Positions 3,964 through 18,117 of a DNA stretch of 64,000 nucleotides are shown piece by piece. The notes beneath the pieces were generated by a model. That model was not told the origin of the DNA and made no database searches. It worked only from the letters and a program-made list of their open reading frames with translations. This DNA comes from Mobula hypostoma (taxonomy: Eukaryota): contig NC_086097.1 in the NCBI RefSeq assembly GCF_963921235.1, positions 60,328,001 through 60,392,000 of the forward strand. The letters are read 5' to 3'. Position 1 is the stretch's first letter; every line of letters begins with the position of its first letter. The translations under genes were made by a program, and so were the position numbers.

Positions 3964-5182
3964 GACTTCAGTTCAGCATTCAACACAATCATTTCTCAGA
4001 AACTGATTGGAAAGCTGAGCCTACTGGGCCTGAACACCTCCCTCTGCAACTGGATCCTAGACTTCCTGATTGGAAGACTTCAGTCAGTCCAGATTGAAAG
4101 CAGCGTCTCCAACACCATCACACTGAGCACGGGGCCCCCCAGGGCTGTGTGCTCAGTCCACTGCTGTTCACTCTGCTGACTCACGACTGTGCTGCAACAC
4201 ACAGCTCGAACCACATCATCAAGTTCACCGATGACACGACCGTGGTGGGTCTCATCAGCAAGAGCGATGAGTCAGCATACAGAGAGGAGGTGCAGTGGCT
4301 AACGGACTGGTGCAGAGCTAACAACCTGTCTCTGAATGTGAATAAAGCAAAAGAGATGGTTGTTGACTTCAGGAGGAGACGGAGCGACCACTCTCCACTG
4401 AATACTGACGACTCCTCCATAGAGATTGTTAAGAGCACCAAATTTCTTGGTGTTCTCCTGGCGGAGAATCTCACCTGGTCCCTCAACACCAGCTCCATAG
4501 CAAAGAAAGCCCAGCAGTGTCTCTACTTTCTGCGAAGGCTGAGAAAAGTCCATCTCCCACCCCCCATCCTCACCACATTCTACAGAGGTTGTATTGAGAG
4601 CATCCTGAGCAGCTGCATCACTGCCTGGTTCGGAAATTGCACCATCTCGGATCACAAGACCCTGCAGTGGATGGTGAGGTCAGTTGAGATGATCATCGAG
4701 GTCTCTCTTCCCACCATTACAGACATTTACTCCACACGCTGCATTCGTAAAGCAACCAGCATTATGAAGGACCCCAAGCACCCCTCATACAAACTCTTCT
4801 CCCTCCTGCCATCTGGTAAAAGGCACCAAAGCATTCAGGCTCTCACGACCAGACTATGTAACGGGTTCTTCCCCCAAGCCATCAGTCTCCTCAATGCACA
4901 GAGCCTGGGCTGGCACCAACCTACTGCCCTCTACTGTGCCTATTGTCTTGTTTATTATTTATTGTAATGTCTGCACTGTTTTGTGCACCTTATGCAGTCC
5001 TGGGTAGATCTGTAGTCTAGTGTAGTTTTTGTGTTGTTTTACGTAGTTCAGTGTAGTTCTTGTATTGTTTCATGTAGCACCATGGCCCTGAAAAACGTTG
5101 TCTCGTTTTTACTGTGTACTGTGGCAGCAGTTATGGTCGAAATGACAATAAAAAGTAACTTGACTTGACTTGACTTGACTTG
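3964..5182 (+). mobile_element. Rex1/Babar-type non-LTR retrotransposon, 5'-truncated
   Basis: RT motifs [43 protein letters not shown] (ORFs 3865-4179, 4149-4967); AATAAA then (GACTT)n tail at 5147-5182. Confidence 0.85.
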
Positions 5183-5940
5183 CAGAAAACAATGATTGCA
5201 AATAAGTGAGTAAAAATTTGACCAAACATTCATATTCCCCGTGTTACAGTAACTAGAAAGCTAAAATTTCAACAAACATTAGTTAGAAGTGCGCGCAAAA
5301 TGTACCTTCCCAATGGTGATGTGCATCGCCTGCCTTAAACAAAGAGAAAGAAAGAACCTCCTGCACATACTCCCTATATACCCATGATAATTGAAACTGG
5401 ACACCAGGCAGCTATTCAATGGGGAGAGCACCTGCAGTTTCTAAACTAACCAATCATGACTAAAGTGACTTTTGACAATCAGAACAAGTGACACCTCCCC
5501 CCCCAAAAAAAAAACTCCATTGGACATGACCCCAGCTTGCTTCAGGTACATTTGGTGAAAATTATATTCCTTGATATTGTTGGCTAGCTCAGATGGAATT
5601 TTGTTCTTAATCTTTGTAGGTATCGTCTTCATCACATTTTGTTTTTCTGAAACTTCGCATACACATGGGATGGGGTTAAGGGTGAAGTATCTAGCATGGA
5701 TCATTCTTCTTCCTTCCCCTTACTCTAGTGATGTTAAAGTAAAAGCATGCTGATATCACCCACTGGAATTCCCAATGAGTGGGCATCAGTGGTTGAGTGA
5801 GTTGCCTGCCCTGTTCGAAGTAAACCAAACAACAAAAGAAATTAAAGCAGGAGGATCCTACCATTCTGCACCTTCCAATAAAATTACTGGCAGATCTATT
5901 ACTTTCCTGCAACATACCCATATCTATTGGTTCCCTTCAA

Positions 5941-6389
5941 GAAACTAGAAGTAGAAAAAAAACACATGACCCTTGAACATATTCTGCCATTCAATAGCAT
6001 CATGGTTGATCTAACTGTCATCTTAACTCTGCATTAACACCCGCTTTCAATCTATCACCCCTAAACTTATCAAGAATGAATCTAATTCTGTCTTTAAAAT
6101 ATTCAAAGATTCTTTTTCTACTGCACTTCACGAAGAGTTCAAGAGACCTATGACCATCTGAGAGAAAAAAAAACCTCAATATTTCCGAAATGGATGAACC
6201 CTTATTTGTTAACAATAATCCCTAGTTCTGATTTCTCTCACAAGAGAGATAATCCTAACTCTCAAAATCCACCCCATCGGGGTCTTGTATATTTCAGTCA
6301 ACTCACAATGCACCCCTTTACATTTCAGTTCTCGCTTGTCCAAATTTCCTTTTTTTATCAGCCAACCTGCCCGCACATTTCAGATATTA
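5941..6389 (-). mobile_element. old CR1 3' remnant
   Basis: Degenerate similarity to CR1 3' ends elsewhere in the window. Confidence 0.45.
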
Positions 6390-6405
6390 GTTTGGATTCT
6401 CTAGT

Positions 6406-7422
6406 AACACACATAAAAGTTGCTGGTGAACGCAGCAGGACAAGCAGCATCTCTAGGAAGAGGTACAGTCGACATCTTGGGCTGAGACCCTTCATCAGGA
6501 CTAACTGAAAGAAGAGCTAGTAAGGGATTTGAAAGTGGGAGGGGGAGTGGGAGATCCGAAATGATAGGAGAAGACAGGAGGGGGAGGGATGGAGCCAAAA
6601 GCTGGACAGTTGATTGGCAAAAGGGATATGAGAGGATCATGGGACAGGAGTCCTAGGGAGGAAGAAAAGGGGGAGGGGGGAAAACCAGAGGATGGGCAAG
6701 GGGTATAGTAAGGGGGACAGAGGGAGAAAAAAGAAAGAGAGAAAAAGAATGTGTGTATATAAATAAATAACAGATGGGGTAGGAGGAGGAGGTGGGGCAT
6801 TAGCGGAAGTTTGAGAAGTCAATGTTCATGCCTGGTTACCCAGCCGGAATATAGGGTGTTGTTCCTCCAACCTGAGTGTGGCTGCATCTTGACAGTAGAG
6901 GAGGCCGTGGATAGACATATCAGAATGGGAATGGGACGTGGAATTAAAATGTGTGGCCACTGGGAGATCCTGCTTTCTCTGGTGGACAGAGCGTAGGTGT
7001 TCAGCGAAACGAGTTCCCAGCCTGCGTCGGGTCTCGCCAATATATAGAAGGCCAAATCGGGAGCACCGGACGCAGTATATCACCCCTGCCGACTCACAAG
7101 TGAAGTGTCGTCTCACCTGGAAGGACTGTCTGGGGCCCTGAATGGTGGTAAGGGAGGAAGTGTAAGGGCATGTGTAGCACTTGTTCCGCTTACAAGGATA
7201 AGTGCCTGGAGGGAGATTGGTGGGGAGGGATGGGGGGTATGAATGGACAAGGGAGTCGCGTAGGGAGTGATCCCTGCAGAAAGCAGAGAGAGGGGGGTAG
7301 GGAAAGATGTGTTTCGTGGTGGGATCCCGTTGGTGGTGGCAGAAGTTACGGAGAATTATATTTTGTCCATTGGAGGTTATATGTGTGTTCCTTGAAATTC
7401 CAGCATCTGTAGACTTCCTTGT
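6406..7422 (-). mobile_element. Penelope-like element 3' part (GIY-YIG endonuclease plus terminal repeat)
   Basis: ORF 6826-7116 FTCESAGVIYCVRC..LYIGETRRRLGTRFAEH..VATHFN; 16-bp direct repeat GTTTGGATTCTCTAGT at 6390-6405 and 7423-7438; short inverted terminal copy at 7381-7422. Confidence 0.9.
6467..6502 (-). ncRNA. hammerhead ribozyme-like motif (mutated) in Penelope terminal repeat
   Basis: Minus strand AGTC-CTGATGA-AGGGTCTCAGCCC-AAGATGTC-GACT; GAAA core changed to AAGA. Confidence 0.55.
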
Positions 7423-7800
7423 GTTTGGATTCTCTAGTTTCTGAATTGCTAATTCATTTACATTATTCTTTAAGTACCAGAATGAAAACTACAACAAAGA
7501 CCTCAAAGTTGGTCTCACAGGTCCTGCATGTAATTGAAGCATGTCCTGTCTGCTGTTCTATTTTATTCCCCTTCACAATGAACAATAACATTCTATTAAA
7601 TTTCCCAATTACTTCCCCTGCATGCATACAAGCCTTTGGGAATCTTGAACTAGGCCAGCTAGATTCCCCTACATCTCAGAGCTCTGCACTCTCTCACCAT
7701 TGAGATTAAAGTTCAAAGTAAATGTATTATTGAAGTACATATATGTCCCCATATATGTCATTTTCTTGTGACATACTCAATAAATCTATAGATTAATAAC

Positions 7801-8389
7801 TGTTGCGAGGAATGGGTGAACCCAAACGTGGGACACTTTCACGGAGGTAGAATAATCTGAACAGTGTTTATTAATGGTTACAAGGAAGGCAGTGGAGTGA
7901 GGATTAAGCCGAGGAAAGCAAAGGAGAAAGAGCGAGGCTTGACCGGGGATCGAACCCGGGTCGCTGCGGTGAGAGCGCGGCGTTTAACCGCTAGGCCAGC
8001 GGAGAGTGTAGGACGGCGGCAGGACGAGGCAGAGCAGGGATGCAGACAAGGGTGTGAGCGTGGCTGGAGGAGAACGACAAGCAGGAGGGTGAACGGGAAG
8101 GCAGGCGGAATGCAATGCTCCTGTTAACACGGAAAGATGGAGTTAACATAGGCAAACAACGGCACGGAAACAGAACTTAGAGTACGCAATTCTAAGTGGC
8201 CTAGAACGTGAACTACCACACTGGCTGAAGCAATGATCTGGCGATGGGTGGATGGAAAGCCGGGGTATTTATGCTGCAAGTTAGATGAGATTCAGGTGCA
8301 TCGCAATCAGGAAGCCGGGGAGAAACATGGGGAAAAGGGAATTAGGAGAACATGAGAAATAAACAGGAGGGATGGCCGGGACCGTGACA
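7801..8389 (-). repeat. 3' LTR
   Basis: Direct repeat of 10943-11529; minus strand TGTCACGG...CGCAACA; ATAAATA at 8272-8266; AATAAA near 7866-7871. Confidence 0.95.
7935..8005 (-). other. tRNA-Glu(CTC)-derived module inside 3' LTR
   Basis: Minus strand TGGCCTAGCGG (A box), GCG-CTCTCAC-CGC anticodon arm, CCGGG-TTCGATC-CCCGG T arm (B box); acceptor stem does not pair, so not a functional tRNA gene. Confidence 0.85.
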
Positions 8390-8392
8390 GTA

Positions 8393-8406
8393 CCCCCCTC
8401 CCCCCC
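8393..8406 (-). promoter_or_regulatory. polypurine tract
   Basis: GGGGGGGAGGGGGG then TAC immediately before the 3' LTR. Confidence 0.9.
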
Positions 8407-8551
8407 AACGGGAGCCTCCAGGCGAACCACCAAGCTTGCTCGGATTGTCGACAACCTGAGTGGGAGGAGGGGGTTTGGCAGGAGGGCACAGAGGGCTGAC
8501 AGATACAGGTTTCAATTGGGAGACGTGGAACGTGGGATGAATGTGCATAGA
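8407..8551 (-). pseudogene. Gypsy integrase C-terminal tail
   Basis: [20 protein letters not shown] motif typical of the integrase GPY/F region in this lineage. Confidence 0.85.
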
Positions 8552-9262
8552 TTCATGAGTTTTATTTTGTTGTCTTTTGCATTCTGGATTTGCTTCTCCT
8601 TTATGCTCTTGTTTAATCACAGGAGATGGTTGATTTCTTGATCTTGTTACTGATACTGGTGCTGAAGATGTTCCCAACCTTAAACCAGTTGTTGGTTTCT
8701 CTTTTGTGGAAGTCAGAGAATGCTTTTCTTACTCAGTTACAAACAAATGCTCAGGACTGCTTACCTTCTTAGCTGCACGAGTGGTTGGTTTATTCTGGCT
8801 ACTTGCATCACTGGTCAGGTTTCTTGCTTTATCTTCAACCTTTGTAGTCTTTTCTTGCAATTGTGTTGGACTTTCTTCCTCTTGTGCTTGAACTGGTATG
8901 GCTTCAGCAGGTTCATCCACTACAGCAGATTTCTCCTCTAATTTGTCTTCAGATTTTATCAAATTTTCAATTTGCACCATGTTTCCTGGAGAAGTGTGTG
9001 CAATTTTCTTAGTATCCAGTCTGCTTTCTTTTAAATGCAACTGGGAATTTTCTATATTAGTTCCTTCACTACCAGACTGATCATTTTCAAATCTTTCCCT
9101 TGACCTTGGGAATGTATTTTCAGACCTTTCTTCTAATTTCTCATTACAAAGCTGTTCTGCACTTTGTCCTTAAAACGTGACTGAGTTGTTTCAAAATTAC
9201 CCTTTTCAGATGGTTTCTCACCACCTTGTGCTTTACCTTTTGGGTTTTGCTTGCATGCCTTT
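8552..9262 (-). pseudogene. captured coding-like sequence (E/K/S/T-rich), origin unknown
   Basis: AT-rich relative to flanking Gypsy DNA; one frame is open from 9169 into the integrase tail except for a TAA at 8729-8731; no RT/RNase H/integrase motifs. Confidence 0.6.
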
Positions 9263-9915
9263 TGGACGGGACAGGCTATACAGCTGACTGGTGGGTAATG
9301 AGGCTCCAAGGAGAAGGTCAATCGCGCAGTTGTAAGGGCGATGTGGAGGCAGAGAAAGGGCCCAATGCTTACTAACACCTCTCTAAGATCACGATATTCT
9401 ACTGGAACGGTGGACAAGTCGAGGGGTCAGAGGCGGACGAGGTAGCAGTGATCTCCACTGGGGGGGGGGGAGGGCTGATTGCAGACAAGAGGAATGGCAG
9501 AATGAGCTCCAGCTGACAATCTTCCTGGTGGACCAGTCAATGTGGGAGTTATGTCGGCCTAGCCACAGGTGGCCAAGAAATAAAGGGGCATGAGGAGAGG
9601 AGATTAGATTCAACCGTATCTGTTCCCGATGGTTTCCGGAGAGAAGGAAAAGCAGGGGTTCTGTGCAGTGCGTGACACGGTCCAGGAGTCTACCGTTTAG
9701 CGCATTGACGTCCGGGGGGTACACAGAGGCTCACGAGGAATACCGGCTTGGAGGGCTAGGTTTTCATCCAGGAAGTTTCCCTCTGTGCCAGAGTCCACCA
9801 GTGCTCGCAGAGGCAAGGACTGCTGATTATGATATAGAGTGGCTTGAAGCTGCATTCGGGGTCGGGGGACGAAAGGGAAGGTTGTCTGGCTCACCAGGGT
9901 CCCCACTGCTACTGG
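9263..9915 (-). pseudogene. pol: Gypsy aspartic protease and pre-RT linker, frameshifted
   Basis: [57 protein letters not shown]. Confidence 0.88.
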
Positions 9916-9929
9916 TGAGCCCCACCTTT

Positions 9930-10926
9930 TTGGCCGAAGAGGACAGGAGGCAAGAAAGTGGCCAGACTGACTGCAAAATAGTCACTCACCCGCTCTCATT
10001 CTCTGGAGTCGTTCAGCGGGAGAAAGGTGGGCCCGCCCCAGCTGCATGGGTTCCTCTCCTGGGGCAGTTGAATCGGCAGGGCTGGGAGCTACTTGGGGTG
10101 CAGAAGTGGGAGAGAGGCTTGTTCTGGCGAGAGACGGTAAAGAGAGCCGAGAAGTGGCCAAAGGTGGTTGACGACCAGTTCTCTCTCTACGGTGCTCCCA
10201 GAGGCGATTGTCCAACCTGGTGGCCAGGGAGATCAGGGAATCCAGGCTGTCGGAATCGTCTCTCGTCGCCGGTTCGTCCTTCACCAGGTCGCTATGTCCA
10301 CACAGAAATCTCCCCGGAGCGACTCATCGTTCCACCCTGAGTCGGCTGCCAATGTCCGGAACTCCACTGAATATTCAGCAACTGCGGGAGGCCTGGCGGA
10401 GAGTGAGTAGGCACTTAGCTGGGTGATCGAAGACCTTTCTCATCTCTGCAATGGGACTGGCGAGAGAGGAGCAGATATCAGATTGGTTGTCCCAAACTGC
10501 TGTGGCCCACGCTGATGCGTTTCCCCTTAGCAACTCAATGACATAAGCAACTTTAGATTTATCTGTGGAGTAGGTCAACGGCTGCTGCTCAAACACCAGG
10601 GAGCATTGAAGGAGGAAACCCCGGAACTTCCCCAGATCTCCAGCATAGTGCTCCAGCTCTGGTACGTGAGGGTCTCTGGGCGGGGGTGTTGGTGAAACTT
10701 GGGGGGTTACCGCTACAGGCTGTCTGGGCTGGCTAGGCTGGGTTCCAGGTGTGGGTTGAGTGATATGAGTGGAGACACGGTCCACCTGGTTACCGATCTG
10801 TGTGATGTGAGCAGACAGGGAACGAAGGTTCTCCATCACCTCCCGGAGGTGTTGGTCGTGCTGTCCCAGTAGGGAACCCTGACTGGTGAGGGCTTGTTGG
10901 ATGGTGTTTGTGTCTGCTGGGTCCAT
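9930..10926 (-). pseudogene. gag: Gypsy gag (PEG10/RTL1-like capsid, CCHC knuckle), disrupted
   Basis: GCCACCATG start; YAGDLGKFRGFLLQCSLVFEQQP, WATAVW, FDHP, LISLATRLDNRL, EEPMQLG, *LFCSQSGHFLASC. Confidence 0.9.
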
Positions 10927-10930
10927 GGTG

Positions 10931-10941
10931 GCCAGATCGTT
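10931..10941 (-). promoter_or_regulatory. self-priming primer-binding site
   Basis: AACGATCTGGC 1 nt after the 5' LTR, not a TGG-starting tRNA PBS; complementary to LTR sequence at 11374-11383 and 8232-8242. Confidence 0.75.
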
Positions 10942-10942
10942 C

Positions 10943-11529
10943 TGTTGCGAGGAATGGGTGAACCCAAACGCAGGACACTGACATGGAGGTAGAGTAATCT
11001 GAAGACTGTGTATTAATGGTTACAGGGAAGGCAGGGGAGTGAGGATTAGGCTGAGGAAAGCAGAGGAGAAAGAGCGAGGCTTGACTGGGGATCGAACCCA
11101 GGTCGCTGCGGTGAGAGTGCGGCGTTTAACCGCTAAGCCAGCGGAGGGTGTAGGTGGGTAGTGGGACGAGGCAGAGCAGGGATGCAGACCAGGGTGTGAG
11201 TGTGGCTGGAGGAGAACGGCAGGCAGGAGGATGAACGGGAAGGCAGGCGGCATGCAATGCTCCTGTTAACACGGAGAGACAGAGTTAACACAGGCAAACA
11301 ACAGCGCGGAAACAAAGCTTAGAGTACACAATTCTAAGCGGCCTAGAACATGAACTGCCACACTGGCTGAAGCAACGATCTGGTGACGAGTGGATGGAAA
11401 GCCGGGGTACTTATGCTGCAGGTCAGATGAGATTCAGGTGCGCCGCAATCAGGGGAACAGGAGAAACACTGGGAAAAGGGAATTAGGAGAACATGAGGAA
11501 TAAATGGGAGGGACGGAGGGACCGTGACA
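10943..11529 (-). repeat. 5' LTR
   Basis: Direct repeat of 7801-8389, roughly one mismatch per 10 nt by eye. Confidence 0.95.
11077..11147 (-). other. tRNA-Glu(CTC)-derived module inside 5' LTR
   Basis: Minus strand TGGCTTAGCGG A box, CTCTCAC loop, GGTTCGATCCC B box. Confidence 0.85.
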
Positions 11530-11672
11530 ATAACAGAATCATTGAAACATTGCCCAGCCCAGGCATTCAACCAAAGTGCAGAAAACAGCAAACTGTGCAA
11601 ATAAAAAAAGAAATAATAAATAGATAGAGAGATAGACAGATAACTAAATACGCAAGCAAGCAAGCAAGCAAT

Positions 11673-12214
11673 TGTTGTAGCGTGGATGAATTTACCGGAG
11701 AGACAGTCACTGGTAGATACAAAGCAACTTCTTTATTCGACACAACAAGGTACAACAGGCATCTCGAGGCGCTTTCCGCAGAAAGGTCTGCTAGCTAAAA
11801 TGTGAGCTCGATATTTATATGCTAAACACAAAGGCAATCGCTACTTAAACAGTTACAGACAATGCTTCCTTTTGAAGTTACATACAAACATCACACCTTC
11901 GGATTTCATCCTTTCCTTCTGATGCCAACATGTCCATGTTGGTATCCACAGCCTTTAGTTCAATCCACAATACATTTATTTGGCATTTTACATGCTAACA
12001 TAGAAGACAATTAATATTTATAATGTATAGATAAGACTATCTTCAAAACTACAGCATCAGGCACCAGAAACATCTGGTATTTACACCTTTTAGGAAGCCC
12101 ATTGTGGTGGACTCAATCCACAGTCCTTTGTCAAACAGTTAAAATAGACGTCTGGTGGCCAAAGTCATTTAAGTGTTAACAAATCATCTACCCAAAAAGA
12201 AATCCACTCTAACA
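11673..12214 (-). mobile_element. solo LTR
   Basis: TGTT...AACA ends, perfect 5-bp TSD GCAAT, AATAAA on the minus strand near the end; related to 16013-16424. Confidence 0.85.
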
Positions 12215-16012: not shown

Positions 16013-16424
16013 TGTTGTCGCGTGAATGAAATCACCAGAGAGATAGTTACTGGTAGATACAAAGCAGCTTCTTTATTCGACAAAACATGGTTCAGCAGGC
16101 ATCATATAGACAGAGACGCTTTCAGTGGAAAGGTCTGCTGCCCAATGTGGGGCTCGATATTTATTTGCTACACACAAAGGGCAATTCATATTTACAAAGT
16201 ATAGACAATGCTTTTTTTTGAATCTATATACAAAACTTAACACCTGATTACATTCATCAAACAGACACCAGCAGGTCTGGGCTGGTATTCACAGTTTGGG
16301 AAATTGTTACAAATGGATTCGGATTCTGATATCCACAGCTTTAGGAAATGCATTGTTACAGAAGACTGGTGGCCAAAGCCATTTACTAAGTGTGAATGAC
16401 CTAAACCCAAAAATTATTCTAACA
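16013..16424 (-). mobile_element. solo LTR
   Basis: TGTT...AACA ends, TSD GGCAG/GACAG, cleanly interrupts CR1; homologous to 11673-12214. Confidence 0.85.
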
Positions 16425-16815: not shown

Positions 16816-17265
16816 CACGAGGAATTCTGCAGATGCTGGAAATTCAAGCAACACACATCCAAGTCGCTGGTGAACACAGCAGGCCAGGCAGCATCTCTAG
16901 GAAGAGGCACAGTCAATGTTTCGGGCCGAGACCCTTTGTCAGGACTAACTGAAAGAAGAGCTAGTAAGAGATTTGAAAGTGGGAGGGGGAGGGGGAGATA
17001 TGAAATGATAGGAGAAGACAGGAGGGGGACAGATGGAGCCAAGAGCTGGACAGGTGATTGGCAAAAGGGATATGAGAGGATCATGGGACAGGAGGCCCAG
17101 GGAGAAAGAAAAGTGGGGGGGAACCCAGAGGATGGGCAAGGGGTATAGTGAGAGGGACAGAGGGAGAAAAAGGAGAGAGAGAGAAAGAATGTGTGTATAT
17201 AATAAATAACGGATGGGGTACGAGGGGGAGGTGGGGCATTAGCGGAAAGTTTGAGAAGTCAATGT
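16816..17265 (-). mobile_element. Penelope-like terminal repeat
   Basis: Close match to 6406-6825; hammerhead-like motif at 16911-16946 (CTGACAA...GAAACATT). Confidence 0.85.
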
Positions 17266-17822
17266 TAAGAGGCTCCTGGATAGGTACATGGAGCTTAGAA
17301 AAACAGCAGGCTATAGGTAATCCGAGGTAATTTTGAAAGTAAGTACATGTTTGGCACAGTATTGTTGGCTGAAGGGCCTGTATTATGCTTTAGGTTTTCT
17401 ATATTTCCTCTGCATTAGCCTTTTGAAGTTATGAACTGTCTGTTCTAGTTGAACTTGCCCCATAACTAACCTTCCAGCTCCCATTTGTTTACAGAATTTT
17501 AAAGCTTCACCGTGCTCTTTGTAAGGTATTGCTTCTCATCTAATTTCTTAATACGTGTCTTCTTATCTGGAGACCATAACCCCTAATTCTAATATTTCCA
17601 ATCAGGGTGTGGGAGTTGCGGCAGGGCAAGGGCTGAAGACTATGTCCATGTTAGCATAGCCTGTGGTACTTGTCATGAACCCAGACAGTGGGGACTTTTG
17701 AAGTGAGACCTTTTCTAGAAAGGTCGTTGAAGAACATAGCCTTGCTTTACATTGTAGGCAGCACCAAAGACAGACAAGATAAGAATATAATTGAAAGATG
17801 CAAACATACCCAACAACTAACT

Positions 17823-18117
17823 CAAACAACAGGAATTCTGCAGATGCTGGAAATTCAAGCAACACACATCAAAGTTGCTGGTGAACGCAGCAGGCCAGGC
17901 AGCATCTCTAGGAAGAGGTGCAGTTGACATTTCAGGCTGAGACCCTTCGTCAGGTTCTGACGAAGGGTCTCGGCCTGAAACGTTGACTGCACGTCTTCCT
18001 AGAGATGCTGCTTGGCCTGCTGCGTCGAAGGGTCTCAGCCTGAAACGTCGACTGCACCTCTTCCTAGAGATGCTGCCTGGCCTGCTGCGTTCACCAGCAA
18101 CTTTGATGTGTGTTGCT
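17823..18117. mobile_element. fold-back insertion made of Penelope terminal repeats
   Basis: 13-bp TSD CCAACAACTAACT (17810-17822, 18118-18130); inverted arms meeting at CGTCAG-gtt-CTGACG; ~67-bp tandem duplication in the right arm. Confidence 0.9.

Follow-up and report, generated by a model that had tools for sequence, protein, structure and literature searches.

The 64,000-nt stretch of the Mobula hypostoma genome that was analysed (the window, whose numbering is used below) contains a 3,729-nt LTR element on the minus strand, a dead copy of a non-autonomous family of ray Gypsy LTR retrotransposons. All of the parts of the element described here share its orientation. The 5' LTR (10943..11529; TG...CA) and the 3' LTR (7801..8389) differ by a K2P distance of 0.121 over 591 columns and are bordered by GTTAT target-site duplications (TSDs) at 11530..11534 on the 5' side and 7796..7800 on the 3' side; TSDs matched at both of the loci that were read, strict end patterns having missed other loci. 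Between the primer-binding site (PBS; 10931..10942) and the polypurine tract (8393..8406) lie a decayed gag with a 3'-terminal zinc knuckle (9950..10926; DUF4939, E 7.8e-9), a decayed protease together with the protease-RT linker (9263..9950), and an integrase tail (8407..8551) whose match to SH3_Tf2-1, at E 0.006, was below the cut-off. No env was seen in the 3.7-kb element. As the original prediction had stated, pol breaks off after its last residues LYSLSRP (9263) and restarts with the integrase tail at 8551, and translation of the intervening DNA bore out its description as an E/K/S/T/Q-rich insert with one stop; its AT richness was likewise evident, with GC falling to 0.36-0.42 over the insert against about 0.55 around it. 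The span of pol that is missing here amounts to 2,323 and 2,340 nt in RT-bearing sister copies, values that come from the two of seven such copies in which the distance between the two insert points was measurable with the patterns used.

The view that all cis signals have been kept holds for the LTRs, the polypurine tract and the TSDs; the PBS, however, resembles a site for self-priming more than one for a tRNA. A stretch of the LTR at 11372..11384, 31 nt past a TATA-like box, is complementary to the PBS at 10 of 12 positions and is likely to be the self-primer. A match of at least 10/12 to the copy's own LTR was found in 11 of 18 copies, where a shuffled PBS averages about 8 and reaches 9-11, and the best-matching site lay 31 nt past the TATA-like box in 10 of the 18, a pattern that is suggestive of self-priming. 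Elements of the Tf1/Sushi group of Ty3/Gypsy elements are described, in the part of the source available to us, as self-priming, their PBS pairing with a stretch of the LTR itself (PMC6317226), and the ray element resembles them, in a comparison by features, in its gag DUF4939, its Tf2-like SH3 integrase tail and its 5-bp TSD and, more tentatively, in a PBS that may pair with its own LTR. Other repeats lie nearby. A 91-nt direct repeat (87%) that starts with TGTTGT adjoins the element at 11673-11763 and recurs 4,340 nt away at 16013-16103, and the pair could represent the termini of another LTR element; an open frame (6826-7488) that we take to be a Penelope-like GIY-YIG is associated with direct and inverted terminal repeats (6393-7490 and 16837-18117).

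The insert corresponds to a host gene. A Pfam search on the cargo alone gave nothing usable, and searching the genome at the protein level with the cargo led to a 1,091-codon open frame on contig C5 and to two short matches 18-19 kb downstream. Across the 421 residues that were searched, the open frame was 100% identical to a M. hypostoma record named BOD1L1, and it was 86% and 69% identical to records from the rays Hypanus and Pristis, respectively. Six exons joined at GT-AG sites gave exactly the last 1,259 residues of the protein record P0001. The exon stretch immediately upstream of the captured part has a single match in the genome, indicating a single-copy gene, and no free BOD1L1 retrocopy was found in the genome searches. 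BOD1L1 has one Pfam domain (residues 15-110), which falls outside the captured part. An acceleration of the parent gene on the Mobula line, of the kind expected from host-element conflict, was considered and rejected: the captured region is fast in all lines, with 10 changes on the Mobula stem and 12 on the stingray stem in the 5' captured part.

The large exon supplies two of the five pieces that make up the cargo of the window copy, and exons downstream of it supply three. Piece 1 (9127..9262; C5:89736670-89736807) starts at residue 1239 of P0001, at a 5' switch point (9258..9262) where the word GAAAG is common to the RT-bearing copies and BOD1L1 and is mutated in the window copy. Piece 2 (8932..9134; C5:89737087-89737288) comes from the same large exon, an in-frame deletion of about 290 nt, found in six loci, separating it from piece 1; piece 3 (8823..8939; C5:89755516-89755633) follows an in-frame deletion of about 700 nt that occurred at microhomology and not at a splice site. 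Piece 4 (8643..8822; C5:89756440-89756619) and piece 5 (8558..8642; the last BOD1L1 coding exon, from C5:89757723) are each attached by a splice junction, and the four joins are thus two true GT-AG splice junctions and two internal deletions at microhomology. Alternative splicing as the source of one piece join (A/B) was rejected, the donor side having microhomology in place of GT. The sole stop in the insert, a TAA at 8731-8729 inside piece 4, is private to this copy, and piece 5 ends about 10 codons short of the host stop. In all, the cargo covers, with gaps, residue 1239 to about residue 1804 of 1814, a low-complexity C-terminal third of the protein. The start of the insert at 9262 was placed correctly by the original prediction, but host sequence ends at about 8558-8562 and not at 8552; the 3' switch point (8552..8562) shows the imperfect similarity AAGACTGAAG / AAACTCAAG together with a private net loss of 7 nt, which brings the window copy into frame with the integrase tail. 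The first 90 nt or so of the cargo are indeed open only in a neighbouring frame here, through a one-base gain and a one-base loss that are private to this copy and do not characterize the family.

BOD1L1 cargo was present at no fewer than 59 loci, and at least 71 loci carried some host piece; these counts, drawn from the loci fetched and with the window included, are lower bounds that include a few duplicated regions. The DNA search with the cargo had given at least 57 matches, from 40 scored of 71 candidates, and all 19 other loci from the first DNA search lay inside the same LTR element. The BOD1L1 loci sit on many contigs and share their junctions. Cargo with all six exon pieces measures 1.7 kb (five copies), and further classes of 1.0 kb (nine copies) and 0.7 kb (six copies, the form seen in the window) are accompanied by shorter ones; the five longest copies have five exon junctions and the window copy two. 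The window copy is a double-deletion derivative of the 1.7-kb cargo. Among the 30 fetched loci with a pol flank, 19 run into RT and 11 into BOD1L1, with GAAAG at the switch in both. Paired LTRs differed by medians of 0.10-0.14 in the classes with cargo and by a median of 0.10 among 12 RT-bearing copies, and this similarity points to one old burst in which helper and passengers moved together. A tree of 47 rows and 343 columns, built without 13 loci that lacked more than 60 columns, was star-like, with the parent gene in a basal polytomy; a clade of 13 CUL1-bearing copies plus L084 was supported (95/98), and most inner branches were weak (9 of 44 starred). Because resolution in the cargo tree is poor and the window copy does not fall together with four other copies of the 0.7-kb form, nested breakpoints are the basis for the order of events. 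The same tree paired copies of different structural classes with strong support (L084/L111, L086/L095 and L077/L078), which suggests recombination or conversion between subfamilies. Tandem, side-by-side pairs of cargo-bearing elements were present at L089, L145 and L150.

What the original prediction missed is that the window copy is shortened and that sister copies carry three more host genes. At 40 of the 71 loci, most of gag and the protease have been lost and other spliced host pieces are present: a ROCK1 piece of three exons on C1, which matches PDB 3o0z (E 2.7e-25); a CCDC93 piece with up to six exons mapped on C18 (Pfam CCDC93_N, E 1.9e-13); and a CUL1 piece with up to eight exon pieces on C5 (Cullin, E 9.7e-11), identical to solved cullin-1 at 56 of 56 residues. 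The shared words observed at the switch points are AGCA at gag/ROCK1, TTGAAG at CUL1/BOD1L1 and the 5-nt GAAAG at pol/BOD1L1, with imperfect similarity at ROCK1/CCDC93 and at the 3' switch (9-10 nt). A piece of pol persists between CCDC93 and BOD1L1 in L101, and L094 and L099 combine ROCK1, a long CCDC93 piece and BOD1L1 without CUL1; on the strength of these intermediates and of the shared TTGAAG, the likely order of capture is BOD1L1, then ROCK1 with CCDC93, which would have displaced most of gag and the protease, and then CUL1. In L099 (G000:C5:198664100-198670600), the longest CCDC93 piece is split by about 700 nt with a poly(A) run. This stretch was considered as a fifth captured gene and rejected, reading instead as what we take to be the 3' end of a LINE with its poly(A). 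At L139-L143, L145, L146, L149, L157 and L158, ROCK1, CCDC93 and CUL1 pieces are kept and no BOD1L1 was seen, and at L151-L155 and L164 about 300 nt of cargo lie between the LTRs, near the size of a TRIM.

Comparison with other rays bears on the date of the first capture. At 19 positions where both Mobula BOD1L1 proteins carry a derived residue, most cargo copies have the ancestral state at 18 and neither state at 1; at 16 positions derived in stingrays, the cargo is ancestral at 14, has the stingray state at 1 and neither state at 1, a further 8 positions being ones that could not be polarised. A RefSeq model from the stingray Hemitrygon akajei (P0019) joins gag to BOD1L1 and contains the same EDKLEE/KSAV deletion join. 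Because the cargo is without Mobula-derived residues and the stingray model has this join, the capture appears to be as old as the split, which places the uptake of the BOD1L1 mRNA probably in, or close to, the ancestor that devil rays and stingrays share; a possible alternative to common descent is transfer between ray lines. Contigs clearly bridged exon or deletion joins of the cargo in two of four other organisms, with shorter overlaps in the other two, and one contig from organism B, differing at 3 of 192 nt, ran across the junction between pol and cargo, which is therefore not an assembly chimera. Runs that we guessed to be RNA yielded mostly parent mRNA and one contig across an element-specific junction.

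We suggest that the window holds a dead non-autonomous Gypsy copy where spliced BOD1L1 mRNA has taken the place of RT, RNase H and the integrase core through template switching, the product having been mobilised in trans, and we put the probability of this reading at about 0.9. By the route proposed by Tan et al. in 2016, host mRNA would have been packaged together with element RNA, and RT would then, in two likely template switches, have jumped to the BOD1L1 mRNA and back at short shared words. Such a product would keep both LTRs, the primer site and the polypurine tract and could be copied, most plausibly in trans, by the RT-bearing sister family, with repeated rounds adding genes and deleting sequence to leave the nested cargoes of 1.7, 1.0 and 0.7 kb and shorter. 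Capture of a host mRNA by template switching had been put forward from the letters of the window, and the checks proposed with it (a parent gene, joined exons, junction microhomology and further copies with the same cargo) led to the single-copy gene BOD1L1, to exons joined at GT-AG sites, to short shared words at the switches and to many LTR copies; the segment matched this host gene and not another transposon. Joined exons would also result from a DNA-level event in which a LINE-made processed BOD1L1 pseudogene landed in an existing LTR element or recombined with one, and L099 demonstrates that LINE insertions into these elements occur. However, pol is replaced, with about 2.3 kb missing, and not interrupted; the host piece ends before the host stop codon and has neither poly(A) nor a TSD of its own; both of its ends coincide with words that pol also has; the genome searches revealed no free BOD1L1 retrocopy; and four genes would call for four such events. 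This origin is largely refuted and we regard it as extremely improbable.

The function of the cargo, if any, can be approached through its reading frames. The 5' junction of pol with BOD1L1 was in frame in 16 of 16 copies, and the original 3' junction was out of frame with the integrase tail in 45 of 47, the exceptions being the window copy and L097, which have each undergone a separate small deletion; the in-frame link to the integrase tail noted at the outset is therefore real in the window copy and untypical of the family. In another subfamily, 9 of 10 copies do read from BOD1L1 into the integrase tail in a single frame, through a separate, later deletion. Compared with the parent gene, and with CpG sites and two probable duplicates set aside, the BOD1L1 cargo had nonsynonymous and synonymous (N/S) counts of 404/159 among private variants and 206/79 among shared variants (p 0.94), and this comparison gave no sign of purifying selection on the captured coding sequence; the amino acids of the BOD1L1 cargo drift neutrally, and the cargo protein is not conserved. 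Stops accounted for 26 of the 589 private variants, close to the expectation of 4.0%, and for 7 of the 332 shared ones, a depletion that was not significant (p 0.095). For ROCK1, CCDC93 and CUL1, N/S was lower among doubletons than among private variants (0.62, p 0.027, uncorrected) and no different from private among variants present in three or more copies (p 0.24). L027 (G000:C21:136.40-136.41 Mb) has, at about 4063-6249 in element orientation, a 729-codon open frame that runs from a tandemly repeated gag segment through the protease and the BOD1L1 cargo to the integrase tail and is unusual at the age of these copies.

The cargo is most likely a passenger spacer and not a working protein. 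A functional chimera, whether protease-BOD1L1 or Gag-ROCK1-CCDC93-CUL1-BOD1L1 and whether serving element or host, could be argued from the L027 frame, from the doubletons with their reduced N/S (0.62, p 0.027, uncorrected) and from RefSeq gene models over cargo copies in H. akajei (P0019) and Mobula birostris (P0018, a 433-aa isoform X1 of X1-X3 that reads protease-BOD1L1-integrase tail). We consider it very unlikely, given that the BOD1L1 cargo is neutral, that in the other three genes the variants common to at least three copies are no different from private ones (p 0.24) and that the captured part lacks the sole BOD1L1 Pfam domain and has been shortened again and again; moreover, L073 (G000:C52:66599600-66606300), the copy in the genome closest to P0018 (95% over 267 aa), has its cargo frame broken into three frames. 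The M. birostris locus of P0017, P0018 and P0020 is likely to be the orthologue of L073.

A wholly passive spacer does not predict the bias of the junctions. Shared non-terminal junctions were in frame in 15 of 19 cases (p 0.0012 at a null of 0.42 and 0.0096 at 0.5; exact microhomology pairs alone give 0.31-0.55), 4 of the 19 having been scored by eye and three terminal ones set aside after inspection; with three junctions into the integrase tail included, 16 of 22 were in frame (p 0.0035 and 0.026). The excess (p 0.001-0.01 for the 15 of 19) goes beyond what passive carriage would give. One reading, which would add to capture and not replace it, is that lineages keeping a single long open frame through the cargo were favoured, the frame and not the protein sequence being selected, for example through RNA that escapes nonsense-mediated decay or stays on the ribosomes making Gag. 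All five host-piece entry junctions are in frame (gag/ROCK1 in 3 of 3 copies, ROCK1/CCDC93 in 35 of 36, CCDC93/CUL1 in 27 of 27 and CUL1/BOD1L1 in 11 of 12, besides pol/BOD1L1), as are 10 of 14 shared internal deletions, and shared variants include fewer stops than private ones (7/332 against 26/589). That stop deficit is, however, not significant (p 0.095), imperfect microhomology may favour in-frame joins above the exact-word null, and, of the 27 multi-gene copies, 19 have a chain severed from the gag ATG by an early out-of-frame deletion in gag, a small deletion reconnecting it in the other 8. The gag deletion is already present in L094, which lacks CUL1, and so later joins, though in frame, may not be translated from the gag ATG. 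We therefore offer selection on the frame tentatively, as an addition that is worth entertaining though the odds are somewhat against it. A broader proposal, that the ray Gypsy family has been a standing vertebrate machine for collecting exons, with successive captures, selection on the element RNA that keeps its frame whatever the amino acids, and fusion frames scattered under an LTR promoter, some still transcribed to judge by the RefSeq models, is speculative and in our estimation rather unlikely.

Retroviruses transduce oncogenes by a template switch onto host mRNA that leaves a defective, helper-dependent element; the ray element differs in that no env was seen in its 3.7 kb and no selection acts on the cargo protein. 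LTR gene capture is known, by our comparison, from flies, fish, mice and maize. In the portion of their article available to us, Tan et al. (Genome Res 26:1663, PMC5131818) attribute LTR-mediated retrocopies in metazoans to template switching, draw the analogy to retroviral oncogene transduction, and report microsimilarity at the switches with a median of 6 bp, a four-gene mammalian "Super" retrocopy in one locus, multi-gene cases also in Drosophila, and 5 of 7 young zebrafish retrocopies of the LTR-mediated kind. The ray element resembles those loci in having a host piece between the two LTRs of one element, without poly(A) or a TSD of its own; in a partial, intron-free mRNA that replaces an internal ORF and has an intron-bearing parent; in microsimilarity at the switches (GAAAG exact on the 5' side, an imperfect 9-10 nt on the 3' side); and in further non-autonomous rounds with shared switch points (PMC5131818). 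It has every sequence-level feature of an LTR-mediated retrocopy. The mechanism is already published, by Tan et al. and for Bs1. The loci described in the same portion of that article are young and have one or few insertion sites (PMC5131818), whereas here at least 59 BOD1L1 loci are accompanied by a nested deletion series and three later captures, in a cartilaginous fish and in more than one ray lineage. The maize element Bs1 (Elrouby and Bureau 2001, 2010, as cited in the available part of PMC5131818) combines pieces of three unlinked host genes in one LTR element, with switch points shared among copies, a copy number of 1-5 in each Zea species and one of the pieces out of frame. Unlike Bs1 as described there, the ray element has four genes, dozens of copies and entry junctions that are all in frame, and its cargo shows no sign of protein-level selection.

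Searches of open-licence PMC and bioRxiv found no papers on such elements in cartilaginous fish, and the same two sources yielded none on BOD1L1 retrocopies. The BOD1L1 parent, the order of capture, its date relative to the split of Mobula from stingrays and the census of frames are new here. In this family, LTR gene capture can be followed through many copies in a vertebrate, with the first capture, the deletions and the second and third captures all kept as fossils, so that a single genome suffices to learn how template switching proceeds and which parts a non-autonomous element cannot lose. Through cargo copies, ray annotations also come to include spurious gene models, and spurious paralogues of BOD1L1, CUL1, CCDC93 and ROCK1; in the M. 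birostris models P0017, P0018 and P0020, isoforms other than X1 exit the cargo where an exon piece ends.
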